Assembly: GCA_029975275.1 (NCBI GenBank)
Contig: JARKPN010000166.1
Span: forward strand, 40,509 to 104,508
Length of the DNA stretch: 64,000 bases
Direction of reading: 5' to 3'
From: Geobacteraceae bacterium
Lineage (GTDB): Bacteria; Desulfobacterota; Desulfuromonadia; Geobacterales; Geobacteraceae
Shown here: positions 34,604 to 51,098 of the stretch, piece by piece
How the letters are laid out: every line of letters starts with the position of its first letter
Numbering within the stretch: the first letter of the stretch is position 1
Notes under the pieces: generated by a model
Seen by the model: only the letters and a program-made list of their open reading frames with translations
Databases searched by the model: none
What the model was told of the DNA's origin: nothing
Translations under genes and position numbers: made by a program

Positions 34604-35560
34604 ATGACAAACGTCGGCAGCGGACAGTATAAGCATCATCAGGTCCTGGTGGTCGAGGACAGCGCACTCATGCGTAGGGTCCTTGATGGGCACCTTCAGG
34701 AGATGGGATACCGGACCGTCACCGTCGAGAACGGCCGCCAGGCTTTGGACAAACTCGTCACAGGGTACTACCCCATCGTCATTACCGATCTGGTCATGCC
34801 TGAAATGGATGGAAGGGAACTGTGCATGGCCGTAAGGGAAATGTCCTTGGGGGGGTATGTCTATCTCATCATGCTTACCTCCCGGGATTCCAGGGAGGAC
34901 ATGATCCGCGGCCTGGAGGCGGGGGCCGACGAATACCTGATCAAACCGGTAAACCGGGCAGAACTGATGGTGCGCCTGAAGACCGCCGAAAGGATACTCA
35001 CCCTCGAAAGCTCGTTGAAGAAAAGCTATGAGGAGATTAAGGCCCTGTCGGTCCGGGACCCGCTTACCAGGGTCTACAACCGGGGATACCTGGACGAAAG
35101 GCTTGTCCACGAGGTCAAGCGGGCCTTTCGTTTCGAGAGACCTATCTCCCTCATAATGTTCGATATTGACCACTTCAAGCTCATCAACGATACCTTCGGA
35201 CATACGGTCGGGGATCGTGTGCTTGTTGAGTGCGCGGATCTCTTGAAGCTCTCCATCCGTCAGGAGATCGACTGGATAGCCCGCTACGGTGGTGAGGAGT
35301 TCGTCATTGTCCTTCCCGAGACCCTCTCTCCTGGGGCGTTCGTGGCTGCGGAAAGGTTGCGGAAAAATCTTGCGACCAAGGTGATGGCGGCGGACGGCGC
35401 CGAAATACGGGTCACGGCAAGCTTCGGCGTGAGCAGCTTCACGCCGGCGAGCCAGAAGGAGGACCTCTCAATGGCCGCATCACTTATTGCCGGTGCGGAC
35501 CGTGCCCTTTACAGTGCCAAGAAAGAAGGGCGGAACAGGGTCGAGTGCGTGCAACTTTGA
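34604..35560 (+). CDS. Response regulator with GGDEF output (REC-diguanylate cyclase)
   Basis: The REC domain reads VLVVEDSALMRRV...VITDLVMPEMDG...KP. The GGDEF domain has an intact RYGGEEF active site. The start is taken at the MTNVGSG ATG. Confidence 0.88.
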   Translation: MTNVGSGQYKHHQVLVVEDSALMRRVLDGHLQEMGYRTVTVENGRQALDKLVTGYYPIVITDLVMPEMDGRELCMAVREMSLGGYVYLIMLTSRDSREDMIRGLEAGADEYLIKPVNRAELMVRLKTAERILTLESSLKKSYEEIKALSVRDPLTRVYNRGYLDERLVHEVKRAFRFERPISLIMFDIDHFKLINDTFGHTVGDRVLVECADLLKLSIRQEIDWIARYGGEEFVIVLPETLSPGAFVAAERLRKNLATKVMAADGAEIRVTASFGVSSFTPASQKEDLSMAASLIAGADRALYSAKKEGRNRVECVQL

Positions 35561-35594
35561 CGTACTCTCCTGCTTCGCCCCCTCAGCGTGCCGG

Positions 35595-36005
35595 TCATCT
35601 GTTCACGCTGATCCTGCCGTCGGTGTCCACCAATGTCTCGAAATATACCTGCCGCTCTCCCTCGGTTACCAGTCGTGCCGTTATCTGGAACCGCAGGGTA
35701 AGAGAGTCGTCTTCTTCCGGGATGAACGTCACGTTTGTACCGGACAGTCTCGGCTCGTACCTCTCCATGGCTGACTTGAGGCTCGATTCTATCTCGTGCA
35801 CCGAATCGGGATAGCTCTGGAGAAAATCAAGAAAATCCGGAACCCCGTAATCGTCCGCAATGGGGACATTTCCCTGTCTGGTGTTCAGCATCTTCTGCAG
35901 ATGGTCGACAATCGAGTCGATGCAGCGTCGCATATCTTCGCTTCCCCGACGATGCGGTTCAGTTTCCCAGGAACGAAGCCGTTCCAGAAGTCGTTCTCCA
36001 ACCAT
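35595..36005 (-). CDS. tssE: T6SS baseplate subunit TssE (gp25-like)
   Basis: LLERL...SIVDHLQKMLNTRQGNVPIADDYGVPDF...RYEPRL is the GPW_gp25/TssE pattern. Confidence 0.85.
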   Translation of the reverse strand: MVGERLLERLRSWETEPHRRGSEDMRRCIDSIVDHLQKMLNTRQGNVPIADDYGVPDFLDFLQSYPDSVHEIESSLKSAMERYEPRLSGTNVTFIPEEDDSLTLRFQITARLVTEGERQVYFETLVDTDGRISVNR

Positions 36006-36066: not shown

Positions 36067-36814
36067 TCAAATCGTCTTTTCCAGAACATCGGCCCTGTCG
36101 CCGGGAGCAGGATGGCTTGAGAACACGCTGCTGTCGTTGCCGTACATCTTTTCCAGTTTGCGCAGTGCGCTTACGGCGGCTTTGGGGTCGTACTTGTTGG
36201 TCTTGATGAATTTGAGGGCATACTTAATCGGCGTCCTTTTCGTTGGCCTGGGAGTATTGTGCGTGCACCAGTTGCTCGGCCAGTTCTCCCAAGGCTTCAT
36301 CTGACAGCTTGACCATGCTGCTGCCGCTTGCAACACCGGCCTTGCGGGCGGCAGATGTAACATAGGCGGTCTGAAATGCCTTCTTGCTGTGACCGAGGCT
36401 CACATGCCCGATTTCGTGGCCTATGACGTAACGCACCTCGTCATCGGTCATCTGGTCCATGAGCCCGGCGAAAACGCGGACGGTCCCGTCGGCCATGGCG
36501 AACGCATTGACATCCTTCACCAGATAGACCTTGATATCGGTTTTCACATTGCCGTCAATCTTCATCCCCTTCGTGAGCTTCGCAAGTCGTTTCGCGTAGG
36601 GACTGGAAGGGGGTGCAAGCTGATTGGACTGGTCGTAGGTCTGGCTCGCCTCCGAGGCGAGTTGCTTTACCTGTCCATCGGTCAGGGTTGCCGCAGAAGT
36701 GAGGTCTTTACCGGCTTCCAGCATGCCGCCGAGGTCGAAACCGGCATTGGCGGGGTGAGTGAGTGCTGCAGATATAAATACCGCTGTTGTGATCTTTCTG
36801 AGTTTGTTCAGCAA
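36067..36814 (-). pseudogene. Secreted M48-family zinc peptidase, split by a +1 frameshift at about 36223-36229
   Basis: ORF 36224-36880 carries a signal peptide (TTG start at 36814 with an AGGAGA RBS), HEIGHVSLGH and ...SQANEKDAD, then a stop. The next frame continues KYALKFIKTNKYDPKAAVSALRKLEK...SSHPAPGDRADVLE, which is the expected continuation of the E-x-x-AD third-ligand region and the M48 C-terminus. Confidence 0.8.
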
Positions 36815-36939
36815 AGTTCTTTCTCCTCTTTCGTGTAGGATAGGCAGGCCAGCGTAGTAAGTTTTGCATAAAGCTATCAAGGTTTTCTTCCTTGTTGTGC
36901 TTTGATGTTACTAACAGAACAACGCTTCACTATTGGAAA

Positions 36940-37230
36940 CTATTCTTGCACTCTTACAATTACCGCGGAAATCTTTTTGATTTCTATTACACTATCGAAA
37001 AATTCCCCATTGGAGAGTTCGCCTAATTGTACAAGCTCTTTGGTGACAGTACGCACTTTGCCGCTTAATTCTCCGCCACCCATCAAGCGCAGGGTAATTC
37101 GTTTCCCTTTATGAGCCTCCAGTACTTTCTGAACGCTGTCTCCGGCTTTGATCTCCAAAACGTCCGCAAAGGCTCCCTGAGTCAGACTCATGCAAACCAG
37201 AAACGTTGGAACAACAAATAGATATTTCAT
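36940..37230 (-). CDS. Hypothetical small secreted protein (96 aa) in the low-GC patch
   Basis: The signal peptide is MKYLFVVPTFLVCMSLTQGAFA. The mature ~74 aa looks like a small beta-rich domain. I recognised no family. Confidence 0.5.
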   Translation of the reverse strand: MKYLFVVPTFLVCMSLTQGAFADVLEIKAGDSVQKVLEAHKGKRITLRLMGGGELSGKVRTVTKELVQLGELSNGEFFDSVIEIKKISAVIVRVQE

Positions 37231-37375
37231 ATGTGTCTCCTATTGAATTGGATTATTTTGCACCTCAATTAGGCGCATTTGTGTCCTTATTTCTGATTTG
37301 GGTCTTGCAAAGTGCAGTTCGCGACCATCTCGACCTAAGGGAGAGATTCTGAGGTGTACCTACCATACTCGGACG

Positions 37376-37403
37376 TGGCCCTCCCCGGCAACGGGGAGGG
37401 CCA
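37376..37403 (-). terminator. GC-rich 11-bp hairpin immediately after hcp
   Basis: tggccctcccc-N6-ggggagggcca, 17 nt past the hcp stop. There is no U-tract, so it may act as an attenuator or mRNA-stabilising stem. Confidence 0.45.
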
Positions 37404-37419
37404 TAACCAACTCAGATGA

Positions 37420-37908
37420 TCAGCCTCTCGGCACAGTCCATGAATCCTCTGACTCAATACCGTTGGGCTCATACGTCCACTTAATTTTCTTGTAGGTGAA
37501 GGATACCTTTTCCATGTGTCCATAGGGATCGCTGCTGGACTCGAGGGTGATAGGCATGTAAGGCTCCATCCCGACCACGATGGCGTCCTCAAGAGTTGTG
37601 GTGAAATAGTGCTCTTCGGTTCCCTGCTTGGTGATCCGATAGTATTTAAGGTTGACGTCTTTCATGTGTTCGCCGGTGCAGAGTGCTTGGTAAAGCTTGG
37701 GTGAACTCTTGTCATACATCTTTGTAATCGTTAGAGGTCCGTGCAGGCGTTTGCCCGACCCAAGTCCGGTGTTCGGATCACGTGGGATGCTGATGGCATG
37801 GTCCAGTGCATAGACAAGGATGGTGTTTTCCCTGCCTTGCATTTCGCAAGACCCGTCGATCTTGCCTTGTTTTTCTCCGGTCAGTGTCAAATGTGCTGGC
37901 ATTGGCAT
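37420..37908 (-). CDS. hcp: T6SS tube protein Hcp (TssD)
   Basis: 162 aa. The Hcp1-family pattern is present (MPMPAHLTLTGEKQGKIDGSC..., HGPLTITKMYDKSSPKLYQAL, KIKWTYEPNGIE). A GAGGAGG RBS lies upstream. Confidence 0.92.
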   Translation of the reverse strand: MPMPAHLTLTGEKQGKIDGSCEMQGRENTILVYALDHAISIPRDPNTGLGSGKRLHGPLTITKMYDKSSPKLYQALCTGEHMKDVNLKYYRITKQGTEEHYFTTTLEDAIVVGMEPYMPITLESSSDPYGHMEKVSFTYKKIKWTYEPNGIESEDSWTVPRG

Positions 37909-38123
37909 AGTGTGCTTCCTCCTCGCTGTGGTTTAGGTGTCCTCTAAGAGGATCACCAAGTTGCTACCAAAATGCCCTCAACAGGTGTTCGTGGCCATCC
38001 CAACTGAGCCTGGAATCTGTCATTAGTCAATGGATAGGTCTTTAGGTTTGTTGTGTGTGCCATTTTCTTTGACGGCAGATTGGTATGCTTAACATGATTA
38101 CCTTAAGGTAAATAGAGCATTTA

Positions 38124-38570
38124 TTATTCGCAAACTATCGACTCAATTTGCAGAAAGGTCCCGGATTTTGTTAGTTTTAATGTTAGCCTGCAGCGTTTTG
38201 CGCCCTTAGGCAGCCGTTTTGTAAGGACCGCGTTTGTATTATGGTAAGTACAGGAAAGCCAGAACCCGTCTGGATTCTCACCGGGAAACAACCATGTTGA
38301 AACAGATTTTCCTTTTTTGTTAATTGCCTTGTCTGGCACAAGAGTAGCTAAACCTGAAGGGTGTCCGCTGCTGAACATAACATTGTCGACATAATGCTCT
38401 CTTGGCACAACATAACCTTCCCAATTCTCGGGGGACGTTACAACCTTCTCCGAAACGTTTATGCTCGGAGGGCATTGAATGTTTTCGGCATTGGCACTAA
38501 TAGGTAATGAGAAAATAACCGAAATTAATAACAATATGTATTTCGACGGAGGGTGGGTATTTGGTTTCAT
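38124..38570 (-). CDS. Periplasmic STY0301-like protein, putative cognate immunity protein
   Basis: The start is at MKPNTHPP, preceded by a GGAGA RBS. The signal peptide ends ISANA. The mature part (IQCPPSI...NWEGY...FSSGHPSGLATLVPD...WLSCTYHNTNAVLTKRLP...C) matches my recollection of the STY0301 family. It lies directly downstream of the effector-like gene. Confidence 0.6.
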   Translation of the reverse strand: MKPNTHPPSKYILLLISVIFSLPISANAENIQCPPSINVSEKVVTSPENWEGYVVPREHYVDNVMFSSGHPSGLATLVPDKAINKKGKSVSTWLFPGENPDGFWLSCTYHNTNAVLTKRLPKGAKRCRLTLKLTKSGTFLQIESIVCE

Positions 38571-38615
38571 TTTATGTCTCCATATCAGGTTTGATGCATA
38601 CAAGAATCCATCAAA

Positions 38616-39008
38616 TCATTCAATTACATAGAAACTATCCCCATCGTTGCTTCGCTTTGTTCCTTTAGGGCGATTGAAGTTTATCGTTCTAATCTGCACT
38701 TCACCCTGATTGTTCTATTGATCGAGCACCTTAATCCCTTGTTTGTCGTGTGAAAGATATATAGCCGCATGTCTCCCCTGAGCGTCGGTCGGGTAGCTTC
38801 CACTTCCGTCGAACGTAGCAATTGCTGTCCCGCGAGGAATTGCCCCATGGGAAGCGTCTTTAACCTTTATGCCCTTTCTCCACGCGAGTGTTGCAGGTGC
38901 GCCTGTAGCTTGTTGAATAAACTCAACGCACTCAGTATTTCCCTTTTTATTTACAAACTTCTTTTTCCCATATACGCTGCTTTCCGGGATACGTAATGTG
39001 TAAGCCAT
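38616..39008 (-). pseudogene. BPSL0067-like small putative T6SS effector (Cys/His hydrolase-like), interrupted by an in-frame TAG at 38715-38717
   Basis: The strong RBS reads gcaaggaggttctATG. The translation is MAYTLRIPESSVYGKKKFVNKKGNTECVEFIQQATGAPATLAWRKGIKV...GTAIATFDGSGSYPTDAQGRHAAIYLSHDKQGIKVLDQ, then TAG, then in frame NNQGEVQIRTINFNRPKGTKRSNDGDSFYVIE and TGA. There is no signal peptide. Confidence 0.7.
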
Positions 39009-39795
39009 AGAACCTCCTTGCTCATTATGCTACTATTTCAGCGATTTGTATTGGTCTTGTGACGGAGCCAAGCAACCATCCCTAAGGAGCTCAAATACTT
39101 CAGGTTGTATCTTAACAACGTATTTCTAAATATTGTCGATCGCCAATATTCTGTTGCTCTGACATACTTAGCTGAGACATGGTTATTTCTCCTTTGCTTT
39201 GATTGAAAACAATATTTGTTTGAACTTAGTTGTATCGATATTGCTTTTTATCCTAATAGCAAGTTTAACTGGGAGGTATCACTCGTTTCAGTTCCAATTA
39301 CGATAGGTGGGGCATTATTATATTTAAAGACAGTTACTGTGCTGCCAAGACTAACCCATATGACATTGGCGGGAATTGTGACCACAAATTGTTCTGATTT
39401 TACTTTAACGCCTCGTTTTTGTGATGTTTTTCCCATGACAGGGTGTCGGCTATCACAAAACATCCTCTTTTTTCACACAGTAGCAATTTCTGAACCTGTT
39501 GAACTTTTTCAACAAAAACCACGTCGTTTGCCATAAAAGCGAACAGCACAAGCACTGTAAGTAATGTTTTCACAGCTATCTATCCTCTAACCAATGACGA
39601 TATAAGTGTTAAAATATAAATATTTTATATATTAATTATAATTAAATTACATAGTTGCAAAAAAATCGTCTTACTACGAGGTGTTACGGGTATAACACTC
39701 GACTTGTCTGGTATGAACCACCACATCTCTTAAGCATACCTGAATAATTGAAATCTGAGTCGAAGCCACCTTAGACGATAGATGCGGATTTCGTA

Positions 39796-39813
39796 GGGGC
39801 AACTAATTGCCCC
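39796..39813 (-). terminator. Short hairpin just downstream of tssC
   Basis: ggggcaa-ctaa-ttgcccc forms a 7-bp stem 33 nt past the tssC stop. There is no U-tract. Confidence 0.3.
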
Positions 39814-39845
39814 CACGGTTGTCTCAGCTCGTAGGCAAAACAAGA

Positions 39846-41342
39846 TCACGCCGCATTGACCTCTTTATCCAACTTACCCACCAGCGACAGCGTAAAATAC
39901 GCTCCCATGTACTTGAAGTGCGGCCTGACCTTCAGCGACACCCGGTACCAGCCGGGTTCGCCGGGAACTTCCTCGACCGAGATCTCCGCCTGGCGAAGGG
40001 GCCTGCGGCTTCTCACGCCCGGCATGGGGTTATCCATGTCAGAGACGTACTGGCGGATCCAGTTGTTCAGTTCCAGTTCCAGGTCGCTCCGTTCCTTCCA
40101 CGTGCCGATGTTTTCCCGCTGGATGACCTTGAGATAATGGGCCAGGCGGCTGATGATGAACATGTACGGGAGCTGCAGTCCGAGTTTGTAGTTGAGCTCG
40201 GCCTCTTTCCCCTCCTTGCTGATGCCGAAGTATTTCGGCTTCTGGACCGAGTTGGCCGAGAAGAAGGCCGCGTTGTCGCTCCCCTTGCGCATGGTGAGGG
40301 CAATAAAGCCTTCCTCGGCCAGTTCGAATTCCCTTCGCTCGGAAATGAGAACTTCGGTGGGAATCTTGGTCTGAATGGCGCCCATGGCCTCGTACTGGTG
40401 CAGCGGCAGGTCCTCCACCGCTCCGCCTCCCTGGGGTCCGATGATGTTGGCGCACCAGCGATAATTGGCGAAGCTGTCGGCAATCCGAGTGGCAAAGGCA
40501 AAGGCCGCATTGCCCCAGTTGTAATGCCTGTGGCTCGCGGACACGTCTTCCTGATAGTTGAAGCTCTTGACCGGCAGGGTATCGAGGCCGTACGGCAGGC
40601 GGAGCAGGAAGCGGGGGAGGGTGAGGCCTACATAGCGGGCGTCCTCGGTCTCACGGAATGATTGCCACTTGATATACTGTGGGCCTTCCATTATGGATTT
40701 GATGTCCTTGAGAGTCGGAAGGGTATTGAAATCCTCGATGCCGAAGAACTCCGGGGCTACCGCGGCTACAAAAGGCGTATGGGACATGGCAGCCACTGCG
40801 GCGGTGTATTGAAGCAGCCTCATGTCCTGCGGTCCGGCGTCGAACTCGTAGTTTCCTATCATGCAGCCATAGGGTTTGCCCCCGAACTGGCCGTACTCGT
40901 TGGTATATACGATCTTGTAGAGCCCTGACTTGACGATCTCGGTGGCGTCCTCGAAGTCCTCCAGCAATTCGTCCTTGGTGACGTGGAGTATCTCCAGCTT
41001 GGTATTCTCCCTGAAGTCGGTCCTGTCCATGAGGAATTCCAGCGATCGCCAGGCCGATTCAATCTGTTGGAACTCAAGGTTATGGAGTATTTCATCCACC
41101 TGAAGGCTCAGCTTGCGGTCTATCTCGGCTATCATACCGTCGAGACTGGCCTTGGACACCTTTGCCGCTTCACGTCCCGGTTCCAGAAGCTGGGAGATCA
41201 GGGCTTCCACCCCCTTGCGGGTGATGGAATAGGCTTCGTCCGCCGGCCTGAGCCTGGTGGCCTGGACAATCTCCTCCAGGAGCGATTCCTGCAGTACCTC
41301 CTGCTTCTCGACGATTTGAGGATTTTCCTGGTTCGTGTTCAT
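39846..41342 (-). CDS. tssC: T6SS contractile sheath large subunit TssC
   Basis: 498 aa with VipB/TssC family-wide motifs (PYGCMIGNYEF, RLPYG, GPQGGGAVEDLP, YRVSLKVRPHFKY). Confidence 0.95.
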   Translation of the reverse strand: MNTNQENPQIVEKQEVLQESLLEEIVQATRLRPADEAYSITRKGVEALISQLLEPGREAAKVSKASLDGMIAEIDRKLSLQVDEILHNLEFQQIESAWRSLEFLMDRTDFRENTKLEILHVTKDELLEDFEDATEIVKSGLYKIVYTNEYGQFGGKPYGCMIGNYEFDAGPQDMRLLQYTAAVAAMSHTPFVAAVAPEFFGIEDFNTLPTLKDIKSIMEGPQYIKWQSFRETEDARYVGLTLPRFLLRLPYGLDTLPVKSFNYQEDVSASHRHYNWGNAAFAFATRIADSFANYRWCANIIGPQGGGAVEDLPLHQYEAMGAIQTKIPTEVLISERREFELAEEGFIALTMRKGSDNAAFFSANSVQKPKYFGISKEGKEAELNYKLGLQLPYMFIISRLAHYLKVIQRENIGTWKERSDLELELNNWIRQYVSDMDNPMPGVRSRRPLRQAEISVEEVPGEPGWYRVSLKVRPHFKYMGAYFTLSLVGKLDKEVNAA

Positions 41343-41351
41343 GTCTCCTCC

Positions 41352-41837
41352 TTATCCTTCCAGTCCGATTTCAGCCAGAAGTCTCTGGCGGGATGCGTCG
41401 TCCCTGATGAGCGCCTGGATCTTTTTCCTGAACTCGGGGACATTGGAGAGCGGTCCCTTGAGGGCGCGCAATGCCTCCCGCAGCTCGAGAAGACGCTTCA
41501 ACTCCGGCACCTGCTCCACAATCGCCTCGGGGCCGAAATCCTTCATCTTCTCGACCCGAAGACTGACGTTCAATTCGTGGTCCTTGTCCTCGGCGAGCCG
41601 GTTGGGCACCGAGAAATTCAGGGTGATATTCCGGGCCTTGAGGACTTCATTGAAGTTGTCCTTGTCAACGCTCACCGGCTCGCGCTTTTCAACCGGCAGG
41701 TCACTGTCGCTGCCGGTGAAATCCCCCAGGACCAGCATCTTGAGGGGGAGTTCGATCTCTTCTTTCGCGTCGCCGAGAGATGGGCGGTAGACGATGTTTA
41801 CGCGCTCCTTTGGAGCAATGGACGATTCTTTTGCCAT
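41352..41837 (-). CDS. tssB: T6SS contractile sheath small subunit TssB
   Basis: 161 aa. The VipA/TssB pattern is PKERVNIVYRP...ELPLKMLVLGDFTG. Confidence 0.93.
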   Translation of the reverse strand: MAKESSIAPKERVNIVYRPSLGDAKEEIELPLKMLVLGDFTGSDSDLPVEKREPVSVDKDNFNEVLKARNITLNFSVPNRLAEDKDHELNVSLRVEKMKDFGPEAIVEQVPELKRLLELREALRALKGPLSNVPEFRKKIQALIRDDASRQRLLAEIGLEG

Positions 41838-41909: not shown

Positions 41910-44306
41910 TCAGTACTTCGTCAATCGAACCATTTCCGGCATGTCGAGACGCCCAATGCGGTGCAGGACATCGGTGGCCTGCTCCTTGAACCTCTGCTCC
42001 GCCTGGGCGCCCAGGGCAAGCCACGCAAGCCTCAGGCCGTCGATCGCCAGTGCCGGGTCGTATTCTTCGAGCCCGTGATTTTCGATATCCAGCAGAACCT
42101 GGTCGAGATGGGGAAGGGCAAGCCTTGATTTGCCAACCTCCACCAGCATCCTGGAAAGGGCCAATCTCCAGAGGAGTTTTTCACGTTTCGAGGATGATGA
42201 TTTCAGCTTCCGCTGCAACTCTTCCATTGCCTCGATCAGGTTTCCCTTGCGTATCAACAGCTGTATCTCTTCGATATTACGCGTTATAGCCGCCTCCATC
42301 CCGGGTTCTGGCGACGTATCAACGGGGCCGGGAAGTGCTTCACCGGACATGTTTCTCCTGAAAACCATGCCTTCCAGCCACTGCCTGGTCTCCGGGGTGG
42401 CAAACGGCGTTCCATCGGAAAAGGACAGGTTTTCGAGGCCGGGCAGACGGTGCATCAGAAAGGCGGTTTCCTGACACACGGCCTCATGGGCCTTTTCGTA
42501 TCTGCTCCCGAGTCGCGACAGGGCCTCCGCAGCCAGGCGGTTGAGGTCCAGCCAGAAAATATACTGGGAAAGCCTGGCTTCGGCCGCCTTGAGGAGCGCC
42601 TCGGCATCGCCTCGGTTGCGTAGGTCGAAGAGCAGGTTTTTTTCCGTTGTGGTCGGCGGCGGTATCCTGGTCCTGCCGTTTACCGACGGCGGGAGGTCTT
42701 CCACGGCATACCATGCGGCCTTTCTCGCCAGGCGGTAGCAGACTGGAGAGGCAGGATCCTGTTGCCATAGACAGGACGACGCCTCCATGACCTTTTTCAA
42801 ACCTTCACCCAGGGCATCGTCGGCTTCCTGCCGGTTCGTTATCGTTCTCGGGAAAGGTGAATCCTTCGGTTCGAGATCCCGCTTGACGGAGGGGAGGGGA
42901 GCAGGCTCCACCGCAGGTTCCGACACGGCATTCCCCGCAGGCTCATGCCGGGACGGTGCATCGATCGGTTCGGAGAACCTGCTGAAGAATTCCCTGATGC
43001 CGTTAAGGGAAGGGAAACTTTCCAGATGTTCCGACAGAAAGATTTCCAGCCGGCTGAGGTTTTCATTGATGAGCTCGAGCTGGAGAGTGGAAAAGGATGG
43101 GTTTGCGAGCTGTTTAAGGGCTATCCCTGCCTTCTCCACCCACCATTCAATGGCCCGGACGCGCCCTCTCATGCGGTGCTTGGATGGATAGAGGTCTTCC
43201 CAGAAGTGTTCCAGCAGGTCGAGATACAACTTCAACCCCATGGCGAAACCGTCGTTTCGGCGGGTATAGACCAGGGCCACGCTGAGATAGCCGGCAGCGA
43301 CCATGTCCTTGGACCTGTTCATCAGGATGTCGGAGGCGAATCTGCACACCTTTTCCCAATTGACCGATCCTGCCAGCGCCGGCGATGAAAGCTTGTCAAC
43401 CTCGGTCTGCAGTTCGTCGAAGGACGGATCATACCGGATGTCGGCTCCGGCGGGCTTGTCGGCGCTGATCGGCTGCCTGGCCAGTTCGGATATGTCCATG
43501 GAGAACTCCGTTCCAATCATGTTTTTCCAGAATGCGGCCGACGAAACCGACCAGAGCTGATTGAAATCCGAGGATTTCAGCGGTCGCCGATAGACGGCCA
43601 GATATGCTTTTTCCAGCGTTCCGCCCATGAACAGGGCACTCGGCATGCCCTTCAGAGCATCTTTGAACAGCATGTGCCACAGACTGACGTGCATAATCTT
43701 GTCATTGCAGGGCCCCCGGTCCAGGCTGACAAACACCTCTCCCTTGTCGCTGTTCGAAGCCGCCAGCTTTTTCAATTCCCGGTAGTCGAGAAAAGAAGCG
43801 TAGGGGTCCATGGGGGAACCGATCTGGTACAGGCCCTTTCTCTTCGAGGTCAGTGCATCCCACTCGGGGACCGGCGGCCTGACCGTGCGGATCTCCTGTT
43901 CGAGCTTTTTGAGATCGGTGAACAGCTGCGAGGCCAGGTATTCGATCTGACGCCAGGTCTTCTCACACGCGAAAGGAAGCAGATCCCAGTTTTCCTGCCA
44001 GTTTTTGAGGGCGCCCGTTCCGGTGATTACGAGCGGGTAGGGCCTGCCGAAACTGTCGCTGCTTACCCGTACGATTCCGCAGACCAGGAAGTCCTTGCCG
44101 GACTCTTTTGCCCAGAAACGCCATGAACAGAAATCGGGTGCGCTGTTTCCGTTGGCGGTCAGAAGCTGATAGCCGTCCTCGACCCAGTTGAACAGGCCCT
44201 CGAAAAACGGTGTGTCATCCCCCAGCCTGAAATAGTCCCCGGCCGCCGGATGTTTGCCGAACGCGGCCCACTTCCAGTTGTTTTCGCTCTCTATTGTGCC
44301 CAACAC
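41910..44306 (-). CDS. tssA: TagF-TssA fusion ORF (N-terminal TagF/DUF2094 domain reading without a stop into a complete ImpA_N/VasJ-type TssA)
   Basis: aa 1-269 carry the TagF hallmarks AAFGKHPAAGDYF, SWRFWA and DSFGRPYPLVITG. aa 270 onward begins MDISELARQPISADKPAGADIRYDPSFDELQ, a canonical TssA N-terminus, with its own GGAG RBS 6 nt upstream of the ATG at 43499. The C-terminal part is VasJ-like. Confidence 0.8.
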   Translation of the reverse strand: MLGTIESENNWKWAAFGKHPAAGDYFRLGDDTPFFEGLFNWVEDGYQLLTANGNSAPDFCSWRFWAKESGKDFLVCGIVRVSSDSFGRPYPLVITGTGALKNWQENWDLLPFACEKTWRQIEYLASQLFTDLKKLEQEIRTVRPPVPEWDALTSKRKGLYQIGSPMDPYASFLDYRELKKLAASNSDKGEVFVSLDRGPCNDKIMHVSLWHMLFKDALKGMPSALFMGGTLEKAYLAVYRRPLKSSDFNQLWSVSSAAFWKNMIGTEFSMDISELARQPISADKPAGADIRYDPSFDELQTEVDKLSSPALAGSVNWEKVCRFASDILMNRSKDMVAAGYLSVALVYTRRNDGFAMGLKLYLDLLEHFWEDLYPSKHRMRGRVRAIEWWVEKAGIALKQLANPSFSTLQLELINENLSRLEIFLSEHLESFPSLNGIREFFSRFSEPIDAPSRHEPAGNAVSEPAVEPAPLPSVKRDLEPKDSPFPRTITNRQEADDALGEGLKKVMEASSCLWQQDPASPVCYRLARKAAWYAVEDLPPSVNGRTRIPPPTTTEKNLLFDLRNRGDAEALLKAAEARLSQYIFWLDLNRLAAEALSRLGSRYEKAHEAVCQETAFLMHRLPGLENLSFSDGTPFATPETRQWLEGMVFRRNMSGEALPGPVDTSPEPGMEAAITRNIEEIQLLIRKGNLIEAMEELQRKLKSSSSKREKLLWRLALSRMLVEVGKSRLALPHLDQVLLDIENHGLEEYDPALAIDGLRLAWLALGAQAEQRFKEQATDVLHRIGRLDMPEMVRLTKY

Positions 44307-47300
44307 CGTGCTATGCTCCTTGGCGCCTGACCGGACATCGTCGCGGCCTGCTTCTTTATTGCACCGCTACCCATGAATTGATAGTTGACGGTAATATGTT
44401 TAATTCCCATCCGTTCGAGGGCCGTCCTTTCACCCGGGAAATCGCGTGCCGAAAAGGTCCTTCTCCCACCCCGGAAATCCCTCAGAAAGTCAGGGAAGCC
44501 GTCCGATCCCATGTAGTGCCTGGTAAGCACCGTATCCCCCACCTCGATCTGGAAGAGCACATCTCCGCAGGTATCCGGAGACCAGGTGAAGGTCCTGCCT
44601 GCGGGATAGTTGTTGTTGACGAGAGTCTGACTAGCGTTGCCGCATTGAAGTTCCAGCCGCGTAGCGTGGGGTTTCAGTCTCGCCTCAGTATTAGCGTCGG
44701 TGGGAAGTCCCTTGATTCCTACGTTGAAGTTCTGGGGTTTTCCCATTGCGATTACCGTGGCCTGCGCCTTGGCCCCTTGTCCGAGAAAACTGAAGAGCGC
44801 GTGTTCAAGGGGTAGGGCGCCTCCCAGCGCCTCCTTGGCTCCATAACCGTACATGTTCCCCTTCAGGAAGGGCATCGCAGGGCCCTTGGCGAAACGCCAC
44901 GCCAGACCGTCGGGTCCCACCAGCATCGGCATTGCCTGTTGTGGGGTCATTCCCATGGTCGGCGCTAGCACTTGCTCTTCCCACATGGATTGAAGCTGGC
45001 AGGCGCTTTCACGTCTCAGAAAGATCCATAGGAATTCCACGGGACCGTTTATGAGTTGGGAGAAGACGGGGTCGGTCTCGCCCCCGGCCAAACCCGTCTT
45101 CAGTCGGGCACCGGACGAGAATGCAGAGAACAATGGTGATTTCCCGTTTACCGGGTCTTCAGCGAAGGTCTGCGAGGCCAGTTGAAAGGAAAGGTTCCTG
45201 GAAGCCGTTGCTTGCGCGATGGACGATAGGGTACCCCGGTATTCCGCATACGACTTTCCGGCCGCTGATTGGGCCTCGAGTATTTTTGCGTCCGCCTCGC
45301 GTCCGATATTTCTGCGCAGAGCGCTGATAAACCTCCCCCCTCCTGACGTGACCTTGACAACGGCGCCCGTCTTACGTACAGCCCCTTGCATCTTGACTGC
45401 CTGGTACTGGTAGACCTGTTGCAGCCATGGCGGCAGGGAGCCTTCTGTAACCACCGGTTGAAGCTCCAGGGCAATTCTATTCAGCAGGGCGAAATAGGGC
45501 CCCTGTTCGGTTGACATGCGGCCCGCAACCTGACGCCATTCGGCAACCCCGCGGAGGCGACTCGCCCCCCGTGGAAAACCCGCAGCAAAGCCCTGCCAGG
45601 CCGAAACCGCTGCCCCGCGGTACCACTCCAGTAACGCCGCCTTGGCAGAGGAAATTGAGGCGGGTTCCGGGTGGGCGTTATCAAGCTCTGCCATCAGTGA
45701 ATCGATGGATTCCTTTCCCTTCCTGGTAAAAGAGGGAAGGACAGACTTCTCTCCCTCTGCCTGAAGGCTGCCCCCCCAGAATTCGGCGAGCGTTACCGAA
45801 GAAAGGCCGCTCTGGGTGTCTGTCCAGGCCGTCAGCCACTGCATGCTCGGGATCTTCGCGGCGATTGTCTGTCTGAGCCATGACTGGAGCACGGTCGTCT
45901 CCTTGTTCAGGTCACCGGGTTCATCACGCCAGATCAGATAGTAGAGATAAAGTGAGCCAAAGGCTTTTCTGGTCTGCGGAGTTCCGGCCGAACCGTCGCC
46001 AAGGAGGGAGATATACGATGGCTGAGGCATCGACTTGAGGACCTCCAGGTCCTTCTCTTCCTGTCGTGCTTTGAGAATGTTGATCCTTCTCACAAGATGC
46101 ACCGCAAACTGACCGTAGAGTTCATCGGGAGTGGAAGCGGAAATGGTGAGCAACGTACCGGACAGTTGTTTGTCATAGGGCGTAAGCAGGCCCTCCCGGA
46201 ACATGCGGCAGTATCTTTTCTTCAGAAAGCCTTCCAGCTTCAGACTTTCATTGAGCCAGAACCTCGGAAACCACCAATTGCTGTTCTTCTCTTCTACGTT
46301 AAGTATTTCCTTACGGAAGTTGTCCATGGTGACGAGATCCGCTTGCATGCCCCCGCGCAGTGACTGGGAAGCGGTGAATTCCCTTGAGACATCGCGGATC
46401 GTTTTTACGTTTTTCACGAAGGAGAAACTCAACAGACCGCAGAGCGCAATACCGAGGATGACCCACGCGGTGAGGCCAAGGTTGCCCGTCAACATGCGCC
46501 ATTCCAAGGCTTTTCGGGTCGGAGCAAGAAGGTTGCGGTCCCCGGGCAGCACCTTGGCGAAGAAATCATGGAGGAAAAGGCCCTTGTTGGTGCCGGGAAG
46601 TGCCTCTACCTCGCCGGTTCTGCCGAGAGTCCTGCTGAAGTGGGAGTGAGGATTTCCTTCCTGTCGCCCGCTGCTGAAGAAGATACCCCGCAGCAGTGGG
46701 GTTTCCTGATATGGGTTTTTGCGGAAGGCACCGCTCATGAAAGAGGCCAGGCCCTGTTTCAGAGTCTCGAATTCCTCGGGAAACAGGAGCAGCGCCGGAT
46801 CGGCCCCTTTGTCGGCGGGCTGATGCAGCAGCTGGAGACGAAGGTTTCTCAGGCGTTCGTCGATGGTGGCGACCGCATGTTCGACAAAGCTCTCCACATC
46901 TCTGGAAAGGTCCTGATTGACAATCCCCATGGGTTGGTCAAGGCTCTTGTCCGGCAGGTTCTCGCAGAAACGGTTAACCCCCTGGATCAGGTCGCACTTG
47001 GTAGCCAGGACATACACCGGAAAACGTATGCCAAGGGCGCGCATGAGTTCGTCAATACGCTGCCGTATGGTGCGGCCATACTCTTCCAGATTTTCTTTCC
47101 CGGCCTCCAGGAGCCTGTCGGCGGCCACGGTCACTATCAGGCCGTTGAGCGGTTCCATGCGCCGATATTTCAGCAGCAGCGACAGAAACCTTTGCCATTC
47201 GTCCTTGTCCCTTCCCTCGTTTATCGGTATGGCGTAACGGCCGGCAGTATCGAGTACCACCGCCTGCTCAAAAAACCACCATTCGCACTGCCTGGTCCCC

Positions 47301-47767
47301 GACACCCCGGTAACCCGTCCCCTGTCACTGAACGGAGAAGCAAGCCTGGCGCTGTTCAGTGACGTGGTCTTACCGGATCCGCTTTCACCGATTACCATGT
47401 ACCAGGGGAGAACGTAGAGTGGGTTACCGAGTTTCTTCAGATGCGATTTCCTAACCGTTTCTATCGCGGCTCTCCACTTTTCCTGCAGATCCTTCATCTC
47501 GCTTTTTTCTTTTTCCGAGACGGTACGCAGACGGGCAATATCCTGATCGCTTATGTCCCTGACGAAGTTCTGTTCCCTGCGTCGCAACCAGAGCTTTCTT
47601 GCGAATATGAAACCGAAAGCCAACCCTGTCAGCAGCAGAATCAGAAAGAAACCGACCCACCACGGCCAGTTGATGACTACAACAAAACCAAAGATCAACA
47701 GAACGAGGAGGATACACGCTGCGATAAGGAGTGTTATCTTGAGAAATTTTTTTATTCTATCTTTCAT
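44291..47767 (-). CDS. tssM: T6SS membrane complex protein TssM (IcmF)
   Basis: 1158 aa with N-terminal TM helices and a Walker A motif (GESGSGKTTSL). The IcmF-related and C-terminal domains are present. It overlaps tagF by 16 nt and follows tssL by 1 nt. Confidence 0.93.
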   Translation of the reverse strand: MKDRIKKFLKITLLIAACILLVLLIFGFVVVINWPWWVGFFLILLLTGLAFGFIFARKLWLRRREQNFVRDISDQDIARLRTVSEKEKSEMKDLQEKWRAAIETVRKSHLKKLGNPLYVLPWYMVIGESGSGKTTSLNSARLASPFSDRGRVTGVSGTRQCEWWFFEQAVVLDTAGRYAIPINEGRDKDEWQRFLSLLLKYRRMEPLNGLIVTVAADRLLEAGKENLEEYGRTIRQRIDELMRALGIRFPVYVLATKCDLIQGVNRFCENLPDKSLDQPMGIVNQDLSRDVESFVEHAVATIDERLRNLRLQLLHQPADKGADPALLLFPEEFETLKQGLASFMSGAFRKNPYQETPLLRGIFFSSGRQEGNPHSHFSRTLGRTGEVEALPGTNKGLFLHDFFAKVLPGDRNLLAPTRKALEWRMLTGNLGLTAWVILGIALCGLLSFSFVKNVKTIRDVSREFTASQSLRGGMQADLVTMDNFRKEILNVEEKNSNWWFPRFWLNESLKLEGFLKKRYCRMFREGLLTPYDKQLSGTLLTISASTPDELYGQFAVHLVRRINILKARQEEKDLEVLKSMPQPSYISLLGDGSAGTPQTRKAFGSLYLYYLIWRDEPGDLNKETTVLQSWLRQTIAAKIPSMQWLTAWTDTQSGLSSVTLAEFWGGSLQAEGEKSVLPSFTRKGKESIDSLMAELDNAHPEPASISSAKAALLEWYRGAAVSAWQGFAAGFPRGASRLRGVAEWRQVAGRMSTEQGPYFALLNRIALELQPVVTEGSLPPWLQQVYQYQAVKMQGAVRKTGAVVKVTSGGGRFISALRRNIGREADAKILEAQSAAGKSYAEYRGTLSSIAQATASRNLSFQLASQTFAEDPVNGKSPLFSAFSSGARLKTGLAGGETDPVFSQLINGPVEFLWIFLRRESACQLQSMWEEQVLAPTMGMTPQQAMPMLVGPDGLAWRFAKGPAMPFLKGNMYGYGAKEALGGALPLEHALFSFLGQGAKAQATVIAMGKPQNFNVGIKGLPTDANTEARLKPHATRLELQCGNASQTLVNNNYPAGRTFTWSPDTCGDVLFQIEVGDTVLTRHYMGSDGFPDFLRDFRGGRRTFSARDFPGERTALERMGIKHITVNYQFMGSGAIKKQAATMSGQAPRSIARCWAQ

Positions 47768-47768
47768 C

Positions 47769-48449
47769 TCAGTTCGATACCGTCCTTATGAAATGTTCCC
47801 CAATGCCGCTCAGGGTGAATCTGTAGATCCCGTACAGAAGACAGAAAAAAAAGACAGGTCCGACAAGGCAAATCGCGAACACGAGTTTTGAACCGAACCT
47901 GATCCTTTGCCGTTCCCTTTCCGCGGGACCTGTCGGAAAGGCTTCCGGAAAGAGGTCGTTGCGTTCAAGGGAAGGGAGTCCGACCGAACTGCCCAGCAGC
48001 AGCTTCAGGTTTGAGGTCTTGATCTGTTCAAGCTGGTATTCGTCTCCCGGGTGGCAGTAGCGCCCGGTGAATCCGAGAGCGAGGCAAAGGTAAAAGACCT
48101 CCCGCACCTCTCTTTGGTGGAGTCCTATGGAGCTCAGACGATCAAAGAACTCTTCTCCGGCATCGGTGGTGTTGTAAAACTGCCTCTGAAGCTGGTCCTT
48201 CAGCCATATGCTACGCTCTCTCCAGGGTGCATTGAGCAGGGCTTCGTCGATCCACGCGCATACGGCGAAGCGGGCCTGTTCAAAATCCTCCCTCGGGAAG
48301 CCGCCTCGTGCCACTCCCCCCTCGCTTTCCGCGAGGAGCCTGCTTATGTCTGCCTTTACCTGCTCACAGGTCGGATGCTTGCTCTCGACGGTTTGAAGAA
48401 AAAAAGACACATATGCAAAAATGTTGATAAAACAGTCACTTAAATGCAT
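47769..48449 (-). CDS. tssL: T6SS membrane complex protein TssL (DotU family, no OmpA extension)
   Basis: ARFAVCAWIDE, FFDRL, VREVFYLCLALGFTGRY and a C-terminal TM helix are present. A GGAGG RBS lies upstream. Confidence 0.88.
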   Translation of the reverse strand: MHLSDCFINIFAYVSFFLQTVESKHPTCEQVKADISRLLAESEGGVARGGFPREDFEQARFAVCAWIDEALLNAPWRERSIWLKDQLQRQFYNTTDAGEEFFDRLSSIGLHQREVREVFYLCLALGFTGRYCHPGDEYQLEQIKTSNLKLLLGSSVGLPSLERNDLFPEAFPTGPAERERQRIRFGSKLVFAICLVGPVFFFCLLYGIYRFTLSGIGEHFIRTVSN

Positions 48450-49188: not shown

Positions 49189-50577
49189 TTATCTACCCAC
49201 CACCATCAGTTCCACGTCGGTTCCCTCGGGAGCGTTGTTCCAGTGAAGCGCAAGCGAACGGTTCCTTTCCACCGAATGCCACTGTTCATCGTGATGGTTA
49301 ATGGTGAAATAGAACGTATTGGCCCGGCGGGGAAGCTCCTGGGGCGGGACCTGAAGGTACTCCAGCGCGATGCCCGGAAGCGCCTGGGTGACCAGCATGT
49401 GCAGCTGCTCCCCTGAGCTCAGTTTGGCGATGTCCTCTATGGTCGGCACCACGGCCTTTGGATCCGCGTCGGTCTTTATTGCCAGATAGTAGCGGTTGCG
49501 TCCCTCGAAGACGGCTGGCTTAAGCTCAGCGGCGAAGAAAGTTCCGTCATGCGCCAGGCGAATCACGTATTCCGGACCGGCTGTAATTTCGTCGAGGAGA
49601 TGCGAGATCATGTCCTGAAGTGCCGAAAAGCACCCCCACAAGTCACGGTGGTCGTAATCCGGAATGCTGGTTTGGCCGTCCTTCAGTTCCCCCAAGACGC
49701 TAACTTCTTCGGAAAATGTAGTGAGCTCGCCCACAAGCTGTTTTAGCGCCCCATAGAGAAACCAGGGGTGGACGTGTTCCGTCTTCGTGAAATGTACAAG
49801 AAGCGGGACATAGCGATTGATGGACCTGAGCGCCAGGAAATAGACCATGTCCCTTGAGCCGAATTCCGCCGTCTGGACTCCTCGCTTGCTCTTATGCTCT
49901 TCAAGCTGGTATGCCCTTGCGGTAACCTGTTCCCTTATCTCTTCAGCCAGCTTCCGAAGGGGCACCGAAGCGTTGCAGGCAATTGAAGGGGGGATGTAGT
50001 CTTCTGAAAGCCTGGTTTCCGTACCGAACTTTTCCAACCGGGCCAGAGGTATGAGCTGGTAGTCTCCCAGCTTGTGCATTTCCGTTTCCCAGAAGATCTT
50101 CAGCACGAAGTAAAGCCTTCTCACCTGTCCTCCCGGCCCCCCGGCGTGAAGGTCGCCGAACTCATCGGAATCGTTCGTTGCCACGAAACGCGTGTGTACC
50201 GATTCAAAACCTTCCAACGCCTGAAGAACGGTGACGTTTTCCCCCTCATCCGTCCAGTTCTTGAGGCCGAGATATACGGTTAGCGGCTTTCCGTCCTTCA
50301 CCCAGGCTTCGTCGAAGACGCGGGCCTCCACCAGGGCATTGCCCGGAAGAGACACATGGGTCCCGTCGGGAAACAGGAAATCTCCGTTCTTGAGATTGAA
50401 TGAACCCGTAGGCAGTGCCCCCTCAAGAATCTCCATCTCTCCCACCCCCCAGAAGTCCTGCATCAGGTAACGCTGATAGGGGGAGAACAGTCCCTGAACC
50501 GTTCGATCCAGGAGCTGGAAATGCTGGGGTTGAAGATAGATGCCCTGGTGCCAGAAAAGCGGTCGCTGAATGTTCAT
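49189..50577 (-). CDS. tssK: T6SS baseplate subunit TssK
   Basis: MNIQRPLFWHQGIYLQPQHFQLLDR is the canonical TssK N-terminus. The protein is 462 aa. Confidence 0.93.
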   Translation of the reverse strand: MNIQRPLFWHQGIYLQPQHFQLLDRTVQGLFSPYQRYLMQDFWGVGEMEILEGALPTGSFNLKNGDFLFPDGTHVSLPGNALVEARVFDEAWVKDGKPLTVYLGLKNWTDEGENVTVLQALEGFESVHTRFVATNDSDEFGDLHAGGPGGQVRRLYFVLKIFWETEMHKLGDYQLIPLARLEKFGTETRLSEDYIPPSIACNASVPLRKLAEEIREQVTARAYQLEEHKSKRGVQTAEFGSRDMVYFLALRSINRYVPLLVHFTKTEHVHPWFLYGALKQLVGELTTFSEEVSVLGELKDGQTSIPDYDHRDLWGCFSALQDMISHLLDEITAGPEYVIRLAHDGTFFAAELKPAVFEGRNRYYLAIKTDADPKAVVPTIEDIAKLSSGEQLHMLVTQALPGIALEYLQVPPQELPRRANTFYFTINHHDEQWHSVERNRSLALHWNNAPEGTDVELMVVGR

Positions 50578-51098
50578 TATCTTTCCTTTATCTCCTGAAT
50601 GCTCTCAGGTCCCATGTGAAGATTGATGTTCAGTTTTTGGGGGTTGTTTAGAAGGGAGACCGGGATCTCGTAAGTGCGTACGCAGTTCACCTTATGCAGA
50701 GCATAATAACCCGCGACCAATCCCACGTATTTGGCGCCCTCGGTCCGATCCAGTGCCCCCTTAATCTCCTGTTTCGGTTGGACCACCAGTCTCTTTGCAT
50801 AGGTAACGCCGCCGTCGAAGCGGTTGCACTCCAGGAGCTTCGACAGTCCTCCGTTTTCATCGCTCAACTGTTTGAAACCGTTCAGGTCCTTCAGGTGATA
50901 GACGCAGACGATGAGTGAGTGGGGTTTTCCCTGGTAGAGGTTAAGAAGTGGGTCTCCCTGGAAGCGGAGGGTTATGGCGTCCTTTTCGTGCGTCCATTCC
51001 GGCGGAGAGACGATGGCGGACTTTCCAAAACATGAGCAAAGAAGAAATGGAAGAAGAACGCAGGGAATAGCGAAAGACAGTCTGGTCATTTTGTTCAC
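50577..51098 (-). CDS. tssJ: T6SS outer-membrane lipoprotein TssJ
   Basis: The lipobox is LPFLLCSC. The TssJ-like beta-sandwich pattern is LRFQGDPLLN...HSLIVCVYHLKD...YVGLVAGYY. Its stop overlaps the tssK ATG (TAATG). Confidence 0.85.
   Translation of the reverse strand: MNKMTRLSFAIPCVLLPFLLCSCFGKSAIVSPPEWTHEKDAITLRFQGDPLLNLYQGKPHSLIVCVYHLKDLNGFKQLSDENGGLSKLLECNRFDGGVTYAKRLVVQPKQEIKGALDRTEGAKYVGLVAGYYALHKVNCVRTYEIPVSLLNNPQKLNINLHMGPESIQEIKER

Follow-up and report, generated by a model that had tools for sequence, protein, structure and literature searches.

A Probable Recent tae2 Pseudogene Beside a Retained tai2 Immunity Gene in a Type VI Secretion Cluster of a Geobacteraceae Bacterium

Introduction

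Does a toxin gene that is interrupted by a single in-frame stop codon still serve its host, or has the toxin been lost and the gene protecting against it been kept? This question is raised by a two-gene cassette on contig JARKPN010000166.1 of a Geobacteraceae bacterium (assembly GCA_029975275.1), of which a stretch of 64,000 nt, hereafter the window, was analyzed; all window coordinates are positions in that stretch. An original prediction, made from the sequence alone, had described the cassette as a small effector/immunity pair linked to hcp, the tube protein gene of a type VI secretion system (T6SS), with an amber codon (TAG) inside the effector gene. The cassette is indeed embedded in a T6SS cluster, with the sheath gene tssC upstream and hcp downstream of it. 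The evidence compiled in the following makes it highly probable that the locus represents a recent tae2 pseudogene with a retained tai2 immunity gene, situated in a decaying variable region of low guanine-cytosine (GC) content within a T6SS cluster of Desulfuromonadales/Geobacteraceae-like type.

The Interrupted Effector Gene and Its Family

The effector gene, tae2, occupies positions 38616..39008 of the minus strand, comprises 130 codons including the internal TAG and belongs to the Tae2 family of T6SS peptidoglycan amidase effectors (NCBIfam BPSL0067_fam). Starting with the ATG at 39008..39006, the open reading frame (ORF) runs through 97 sense codons (39008..38718) to the in-frame amber codon 98 (38715..38717, minus strand), where the sequence reads ...GIKVLDQ-TAG-NNQGEV... 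and where one G>A transition replaced the TGG of an invariant tryptophan. The 32 sense codons behind the TAG (38619..38714, minus strand; NNQGEVQIRTINFNRPKGTKRSNDGDSFYVIE) are still in frame according to direct reading, the alignments and the structural model described below, and they end with ...SFYVIE-TGA, the TGA being located at 38618..38616. Both motifs named in the original prediction, GNTECVEF (with Cys27) and GRHAAIYL (with His80), lie upstream of the amber, and every detail quoted there, including the in-frame TAG and the read-through length of 130 codons, is present on the minus strand. A Shine-Dalgarno-like AGGAGG was read directly from the sequence 4 nt 5' of the ATG (39013..39018, minus strand), and the expression signals of tae2 still look intact. 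A promoter and terminator scan of positions 37300-39900 yielded a number of sites not above that of shuffled sequence.

The proposed affiliation of the effector to the BPSL0067 family was confirmed by the product with restored Trp, which matches NCBIfam NF033857 (BPSL0067_fam) with an E-value of 6.4e-29 and 100.6 bits (cut-off 27), residues 21-130 covering profile positions 3-115 of 115. The 97-residue product alone reaches 76.3 bits over profile positions 3-76 of 115. Thus, the tail contributes about 24 bits and represents homologous coding sequence rather than a chance ORF. A search of solved structures retrieved PDB entry 6WIN, the "Type 6 secretion amidase effector 2" of S. Typhi (E 2.2e-10), in the alignment of which Cys23 and His73 fall on Cys27 and His80 of the window protein and ...VMDQW... 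falls on ...VLDQ*..., with Trp91 in the amber column. The papain-like Cys-His layout suggested earlier is thereby supported. Cys23 and His73 are the catalytic residues of S. Typhi Tae2, an enzyme with a papain-like amidase fold of six strands and an activity limited to Gram-negative peptidoglycan (bioRxiv 10.1101/2020.04.10.036376). BPSL0067_fam is also matched by part of the 6WIN chain (E 6.9e-36), and the NCBIfam family therefore includes the characterized Tae2. The assumption that neither family has a demonstrated T6SS role thus had to be abandoned, as the effector family contains a member that is both solved and biochemically characterized.

In PMC10469887 and PMC13224477, Tae2/Tai2 is treated as a bona fide T6SS effector/immunity pair with reference to Russell et al. 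2012, and Tae2 is described there as cutting the DD-cross-link of peptidoglycan between meso-diaminopimelic acid (mDAP) and D-Ala. Salmonella pathogenicity island 6 (SPI-6) carries tae2/tai2 in its variable region 1, downstream of tssC (PMC10469887, PMC13224477), and the Tae2 of B. thailandensis is BTH_I0068 (PMC8926400). The window cassette shares with the S. Typhi and B. thailandensis systems the family NF033857, the aligned catalytic Cys and His, the ...DQW... motif at the position of the stop and a bicistronic arrangement with a signal-peptide immunity gene directly 3' of the effector gene. It differs from them in several respects: the window protein is roughly 35% identical to S. Typhi Tae2 over the aligned core, its host is Desulfuromonadales/Geobacteraceae-like whereas Salmonella and Burkholderia are gamma- and betaproteobacteria, and the effector is cut by a nonsense codon. 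A further relative is Dae2 (domesticated amidase effector 2) of ticks and mites, which descends from bacterial tae2 and has the same fold and the same catalytic Cys-His. In contrast to the window protein, Dae2 is a eukaryotic secreted immune factor with a broadened substrate range, and it is unrelated to the truncation considered here.

The Conserved Tryptophan and the Lost Tail

Homologues were aligned in sets of 18 and of 45-46 sequences. Without exception, the 45 aligned homologues place a Trp in the amber column, which belongs to an invariant D-Q-W motif, and these proteins are almost all 130 aa long and end with ...YVIE. This agrees with the statement in the original prediction that homologues read ...LDQW... 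and end ...VIE, as well as with its claim that a single TGG-to-TAG change truncates the toxin and leaves the immunity gene intact, all conserved residues of the latter being kept. Likewise, both parts of the alignment check proposed at that time, a Trp at the TAG position and coverage of the downstream codons, were borne out, the profile being matched up to its last position. The search for database relatives gave 508 matches; among those listed, nearly all have about 130 aa or more and no homologue ends near residue 97. The 508 matches include no intact allele of more than 88% identity.

The fold was examined on the closest intact homologue (P0001), which is 88% identical to the window protein and for which the AlphaFold model features a predicted local distance difference test (pLDDT) value of 94.1. 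The only significant PDB match of this model is again 6WIN (E 3e-8), with template modeling (TM) scores of 0.76/0.71 over the whole length, and its fold is that of S. Typhi Tae2. Strands were assigned to residues 45-48, 61-65, 81-87 (just after His80), 91-97, 103-110 and 126-129, so that the amber falls directly behind the fourth strand and the tail forms the last two (103-110 and 126-129). As the stop deletes the last two of six core strands, the compact single domain is unlikely to fold. Judged from this model, the 97-residue Tae2 is most likely inactive.

A complete ORF of about 130 residues, as expected of the Tae2 family, is not present in the window because of the TAG at codon 98, which makes the locus a pseudogene of a Tae2-family member and not a working member. 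Three other characteristics of the family were found: the match to the family model and to a characterized member, the Cys-His papain-like fold, as modeled for the 88%-identical homologue, and the cognate immunity gene within a T6SS cluster.

Reproducibility and Inheritance of the Amber Codon

A product of exactly these 97 aa has been recorded for 44 contigs, listed in 48 blocks of the index. Nine loci with this product were fetched. They originate from several unrelated sequencing runs, a metagenome of the Joint Genome Institute (JGI) and the NCBI metagenome-assembled genome (MAG) GCA_040771705.1, agree with the window at 99.96-100% identity across as much as 20 kb and all carry the identical gene and tail. 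The identical TAG in nine loci from separate runs excludes a sequencing error. An exact-pattern scan of metagenome contigs for TAG or TGG at codon 98 detected neither allele, although the pattern matches the window and all 14 fetched loci of the two strains considered here. Since not even the TAG allele occurs in that metagenome collection, the collection lacks the window organism and is uninformative as a test for an intact allele.

The second of these strains, a sister strain, was found via the 90%-identity cluster of the immunity protein, which holds a second sequence (P0139). It is represented by five contigs (L075-L079; JGI 3300044606, three SRR runs and MAG GCA_046128295.1), is 99.4-99.5% identical to the window and is fully syntenic. 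The TAG at codon 98 is present there as well and thus occurs in 14 of 14 fetched loci of two strains, which indicates that the amber predates their split. In addition, the sister tae2 exhibits two changes relative to the window, a C>T at 38780, which turns Gln77 (CAG) into a second TAG, and a G>C at 38706 within the tail, which converts Gln101 to His, a residue conserved in at least 90% of 45 aligned homologues. No synonymous change was found in tae2. Among the neighbors, tssB and hcp are unchanged, all 6 differences in tssC are synonymous, and tai2 features 1 synonymous change and the conservative V61L. Comparison of these sequences suggests that, since the amber arose, the effector has been free to decay while sheath, tube and immunity gene stay constrained.

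The age of the mutation was approached by the ratio of non-synonymous to synonymous substitution rates (dN/dS) against the nearest intact relatives, L014 and L010, from which the window is separated by a dS of about 0.4-0.5. Relative to L014, dN/dS amounts to 0.138 in the tail and 0.143 in the head of tae2. The similarity of both values implies that the tail was under selection for nearly all of that time and that the nonsense mutation is recent on this scale, which explains why the gene looks perfect save one base.

The Immunity Gene

The downstream gene, tai2, occupies 38124..38570 on the minus strand (148 aa, ATG at 38570 to TAA) and has its own GGAG at 38581..38578; its ATG lies 45 nt beyond the original tae2 stop (TGA). 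As had been predicted, it belongs to the STY0301 family: the protein matches NCBIfam NF042415 (STY0301_fam) with an E-value of 4e-30 and 104.5 bits (cut-off 22), residues 11-147 covering profile positions 6-137 of 137. Direct reading of the sequence reveals a Sec-type leader, MKPNTHPPSKYILLLISVIFSLPISANA|EN (MKPN...SANA|EN). Seven residues show a conservation of at least 98% across 52 family sequences, namely C33, C107, C127, C147, W50, W93 and W104, and the window protein has all of them. The length is typical of the family, and the four conserved Cys together with the Sec leader fit a periplasmic, disulfide-bonded protein. The earlier view of an intact, periplasmic immunity protein is in line with these features, and such a protein implies a cell-wall target. 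The dN/dS values of tai2 against L014 and L010 amount to 0.21-0.24. Neither Tai2 nor Tae2 matched any Pfam model, even at E-values up to 1, and a sequence search of solved structures retrieved no Tai2 structure.

Conserved gene order offers additional support for the pairing. Among 60 Tae2-family loci from genome contigs (best identity 68%, none of the window's own species), about 48 feature a Tai2-like ORF directly 3' of tae2 on the same strand. STY0302, the locus tag following STY0301, is hcp (PMC3680342). The position of tae2/tai2 downstream of tssC in SPI-6 and of STY0301 directly before hcp fits the order tssC-tae2-tai2-hcp of the window.

A degraded tae2 beside an intact tai2 was found in two further genomes. 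In Azovibrio restrictus DSM 23866 (L070, 3800-4700), the tae2 remnant has lost its N-terminus and bears a frameshift, and in Pseudoduganella sp. OTU4001 (L066, 3700-4600), tae2 lacks the catalytic Cys region and the catalytic His is changed to Tyr. Accordingly, effector loss with immunity retention recurs in the Tae2/Tai2 family. A third decayed cassette shows the other partner damaged, with tai2 broken by an in-frame stop (L049, 4380-4840). Orphan or retained T6SS immunity genes are a documented concept (e.g., PMC7400221; bioRxiv 10.1101/471110). The window locus resembles such immunity islets and acquired interbacterial defense clusters by an intact immunity gene beside an inactivated cognate toxin. 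It differs in that the effector has barely begun to decay, with one nonsense codon and all else intact, and in that tai2 is still located in its original cassette inside the T6SS cluster, unlike the genes of dedicated immunity arrays.

Alternative Explanations

Several other explanations of the amber codon were weighed, all of them with little chance of being correct. The one that survives best, although very unlikely, holds that the TAG is decoded by near-cognate read-through, a suppressor tRNA or pyrrolysine, which would supply a low dose of active full-length Tae2 and turn the codon into a throttle instead of a knockout. The in-frame tail with all of its invariant residues, its head-like dN/dS, the intact start and Shine-Dalgarno signals and the fact that both stops of the sister strain are amber are compatible with this idea. 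Reassignment of TAG in the genetic code was ruled out, as 13 of the 52 long ORFs in the window, among them tssM and the gene of an AcrB-type pump (acrB), terminate with TAG, and the same count argues against strong suppression. No tRNA gene and no Rfam family or recoding RNA was found within the window, i.e., there is no local suppressor or recoding element. The second stop and the altered Gln101 of the sister strain are what would be expected in the absence of constraint, and two ambers are unremarkable there because amber is the commonest outcome of the nonsense transitions possible in tae2 (5 of 12 paths). The usual near-cognate insertions at an amber codon are Gln, Tyr and Lys. Given the invariance of Trp98, such insertions would probably be harmful. 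Furthermore, the low dN/dS reflects the long history preceding the mutation. Nothing positive supports read-through in the data examined. Regarding the two checks suggested by the original prediction, that of resequencing is answered by a reproducible TAG common to a damaged sister strain, and that for amber-suppressor or pyl genes is answered as far as the data allow, TAG being an ordinary stop in the window.

Slightly less probable still is a function of the 97-residue product itself, be it as an amidase with Cys27 and His80 kept, as a decoy binding Tai2 or as a regulator. The stop lies behind both catalytic residues and behind the invariant D96-Q97, and the start codon and Shine-Dalgarno sequence are retained. 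On the other hand, the truncation removes two of the six core strands of a compact single-domain fold, the homologues listed offer no precedent for a protein of this length, and in the sister strain the product is shortened to 76 residues with His80 lost. Taken together, a low-level or condition-dependent read-through at UAG-A that provides a trickle of dose-limited full-length Tae2, or a 97-residue fragment with a role of its own, is regarded as very improbable.

Two further proposals can practically be dismissed. A sequencing or assembly error hiding a gene that is intact in the organism was suggested by the single-base difference from TGG and by the early advice to resequence, but is contradicted by the identical codon in different runs, a JGI metagenome and a MAG, by the 44 contigs with the exact product and by a second strain that shares the TAG and was assembled from other samples. 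A new toxin class, i.e., an uncharacterized effector/immunity family pair without a demonstrated T6SS role, might have been assumed from the lack of Pfam models and from NCBIfam names devoid of a functional description, but conflicts with the crystallized and characterized Tae2 (6WIN) within the effector family and with the listing of Tae2/Tai2 as a bona fide T6SS pair.

The interpretation as a recent pseudogene with a retained immunity gene is itself confronted with several points that weigh against it. The copies of the window allele are essentially identical and stem from one clonal population; hence, the nine loci carry no information on selection and have no population-genetic power. The evidence for further decay consists of just two substitutions in one sister strain, and the window tae2 is otherwise undamaged, with start codon, Shine-Dalgarno sequence, catalytic residues and all invariant tail residues in place. 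Tail and head have the same dN/dS (0.14), which fits a recent mutation and would also be compatible with use by read-through, improbable as the latter appears. The search for suppressor tRNAs covers the 64-kb window alone. The equation of STY0301 with the Tai2 of S. Typhi is deduced from locus-tag order and conserved adjacency. Finally, protection against the Tae2 of neighbors is most likely the reason why tai2 was kept, a role that we infer.

The T6SS Cluster and Its Eroded Variable Region

The upstream part of the T6SS cluster comprises, toward increasing coordinates, tssC for the large sheath subunit (39846..41342, minus strand), tssB (41352-41837), a tagF-tssA fusion of 798 aa with the domains TagF_N, ImpA_N and VasJ (41910-44306, minus strand), tssM (44291-47767), tssL (47769-48449), tssK (49189-50577) and tssJ (50577-51098). 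On the other side, hcp (37420..37908, minus strand; PF05638) lies directly 3' of tai2 and encodes a protein 94% identical to the Hcp of L014, and tssE (gp25-like; 35595..36005, minus strand) is the last T6SS gene of the cluster in the window. The view of the host as a Desulfuromonadales/Geobacteraceae-like bacterium derives from the 90%-identity TssC cluster, among whose members are Desulfuromonas sp. CSMB_57 and a Geobacteraceae MAG. Between the window and the sister strain, tagF-tssA differs by 8 synonymous and 8 non-synonymous changes and is thus far less constrained than tssC.

The GC content amounts to about 57% in the core genes vs. 36-47% across positions 38000-39800. In relatives, hcp copies and small ORF cassettes form an array between tssC and tssE. 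In the window, a spacer of about 840 bp between tssC and tae2 (39009..39845; 36-44% GC) contains gene remnants and no intact gene. Its segment 39263..39439 (minus strand) matches only residues 7-65 of a 173-aa ORF that is intact in L010, followed by a short C-terminal fragment, and a 1-nt indel at about 39431 distinguishes the window from the sister strain, in which two frames are fused to a 108-aa ORF. Relatives feature an ORF of 158 aa (L011/L012) or 92 aa (L014) just upstream of tae2, which is absent in the window.

Between hcp and tssE, an M48 metallopeptidase gene (36070-36880, minus strand) is frameshifted at about 36225-36230. Its best NCBIfam match is LoiP, below the cut-off. At the break, the intact 248-aa homologue of L010 reads GCC GAC CGC TAT vs. 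GCC GAT TAAG TAT in the window, so that residues 1-196 are encoded in another frame than residues 197-248; a call of 196 aa exists in the sister strain, too. As a whole, the cassette region is in decay, with a low-GC islet, remnants of genes on the upstream side and, on the downstream side, the frameshifted M48/LoiP-like gene.

Directly after hcp, the window has a signal-peptide ORF of 96 aa (36940-37230, minus strand) without family assignment. ORFs of 95 aa follow hcp copies in L080-L082 and resemble it by size and position; the 96-aa ORF may represent a conserved hcp-linked accessory or immunity gene. In a relative with intact tae2 (84% identical), the hcp copy 3' of tai2 contains an in-frame TGA where the window has CGG (Arg91). 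TGA-bearing hcp copies are located at 5362-5850 in L010, 1825-2313 in L012 and 1435-1923 in L013. As that relative has a second, intact hcp upstream, the TGA copy looks like a nonsense-mutated duplicate.

Further cassettes were observed in L010, where positions 1246-2904 contain a second, divergent pair of tae2-like and tai2-like genes (121/156 aa, 48%/34% identical to those of the window) as well as a 112-aa DPBB_1 (RlpA-like) protein and, behind it, a signal-peptide protein of 151 aa. The latter two possibly form another cell-wall effector/immunity pair. In L035 (3536-4912; Anaeromyxobacter sp. RBG_16_69_14), Tae2-like and Tai2-like matches lie in one stop-free segment, which suggests overlapping or fused reading frames.

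Regarding the end of the cluster, tssF is located directly behind tssE in the relatives L080 (19142-21141) and L081 (17465-20641), the latter with an additional 346-aa gene. In the window, tssE (ending at 35595) abuts a convergent response-regulator/GGDEF gene (compared stretch 35560-36005). No tssF, tssG, clpV, vgrG or PAAR gene was found among the larger window ORFs scanned. Either the T6SS apparatus is incomplete, or its genes are distributed over separate parts of the genome.

Conclusion

The course of events can be outlined as a model. The locus is a Tae2/Tai2 cassette lying in the variable region that separates tssC from hcp in the T6SS cluster. Intact Tae2 is a small papain-like Cys-His amidase which the T6SS delivers to the periplasm of neighboring Gram-negative cells and which, by analogy to the Salmonella and Burkholderia proteins, would cleave the mDAP-D-Ala cross-links of peptidoglycan. 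Its export probably proceeds via Hcp, as suggested by the small size and the adjacency to hcp. Tai2, likewise by analogy, would be exported by the Sec system to the producer's periplasm and neutralize incoming Tae2 there. One TGG-to-TAG transition at the invariant Trp98 then cut Tae2 after 97 residues and removed its last two beta-strands. The amber is real and inherited; it is older than the split of the two sampled strains, yet young on the scale that separates the locus from its nearest intact homologues. Afterwards, one strain has gathered further damage. With its own ribosome-binding site and all conserved residues, tai2 was most likely kept against the Tae2 of neighbors, which would make it a case of "orphan immunity."

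Tae2/Tai2 is already characterized, and the window locus is an ordinary decaying gene and no new toxin class. Its significance beyond annotation is little. For annotation, the "BPSL0067 family" could be named Tae2 and the "STY0301 family," on the basis of gene order, Tai2, and the locus shows that the hcp-linked variable region of a T6SS of Desulfuromonadales/Geobacteraceae type harbors a Tae2/Tai2 cassette. Moreover, it captures, cleanly and in datable form, how the loss of an effector begins while its immunity gene stays, with one nonsense codon in two strains and, in one of them, a second stop and a damaging substitution already. If it is true that Tai2 is kept for defense, the locus would illustrate the already established idea that immunity genes outlive their toxins in natural communities.

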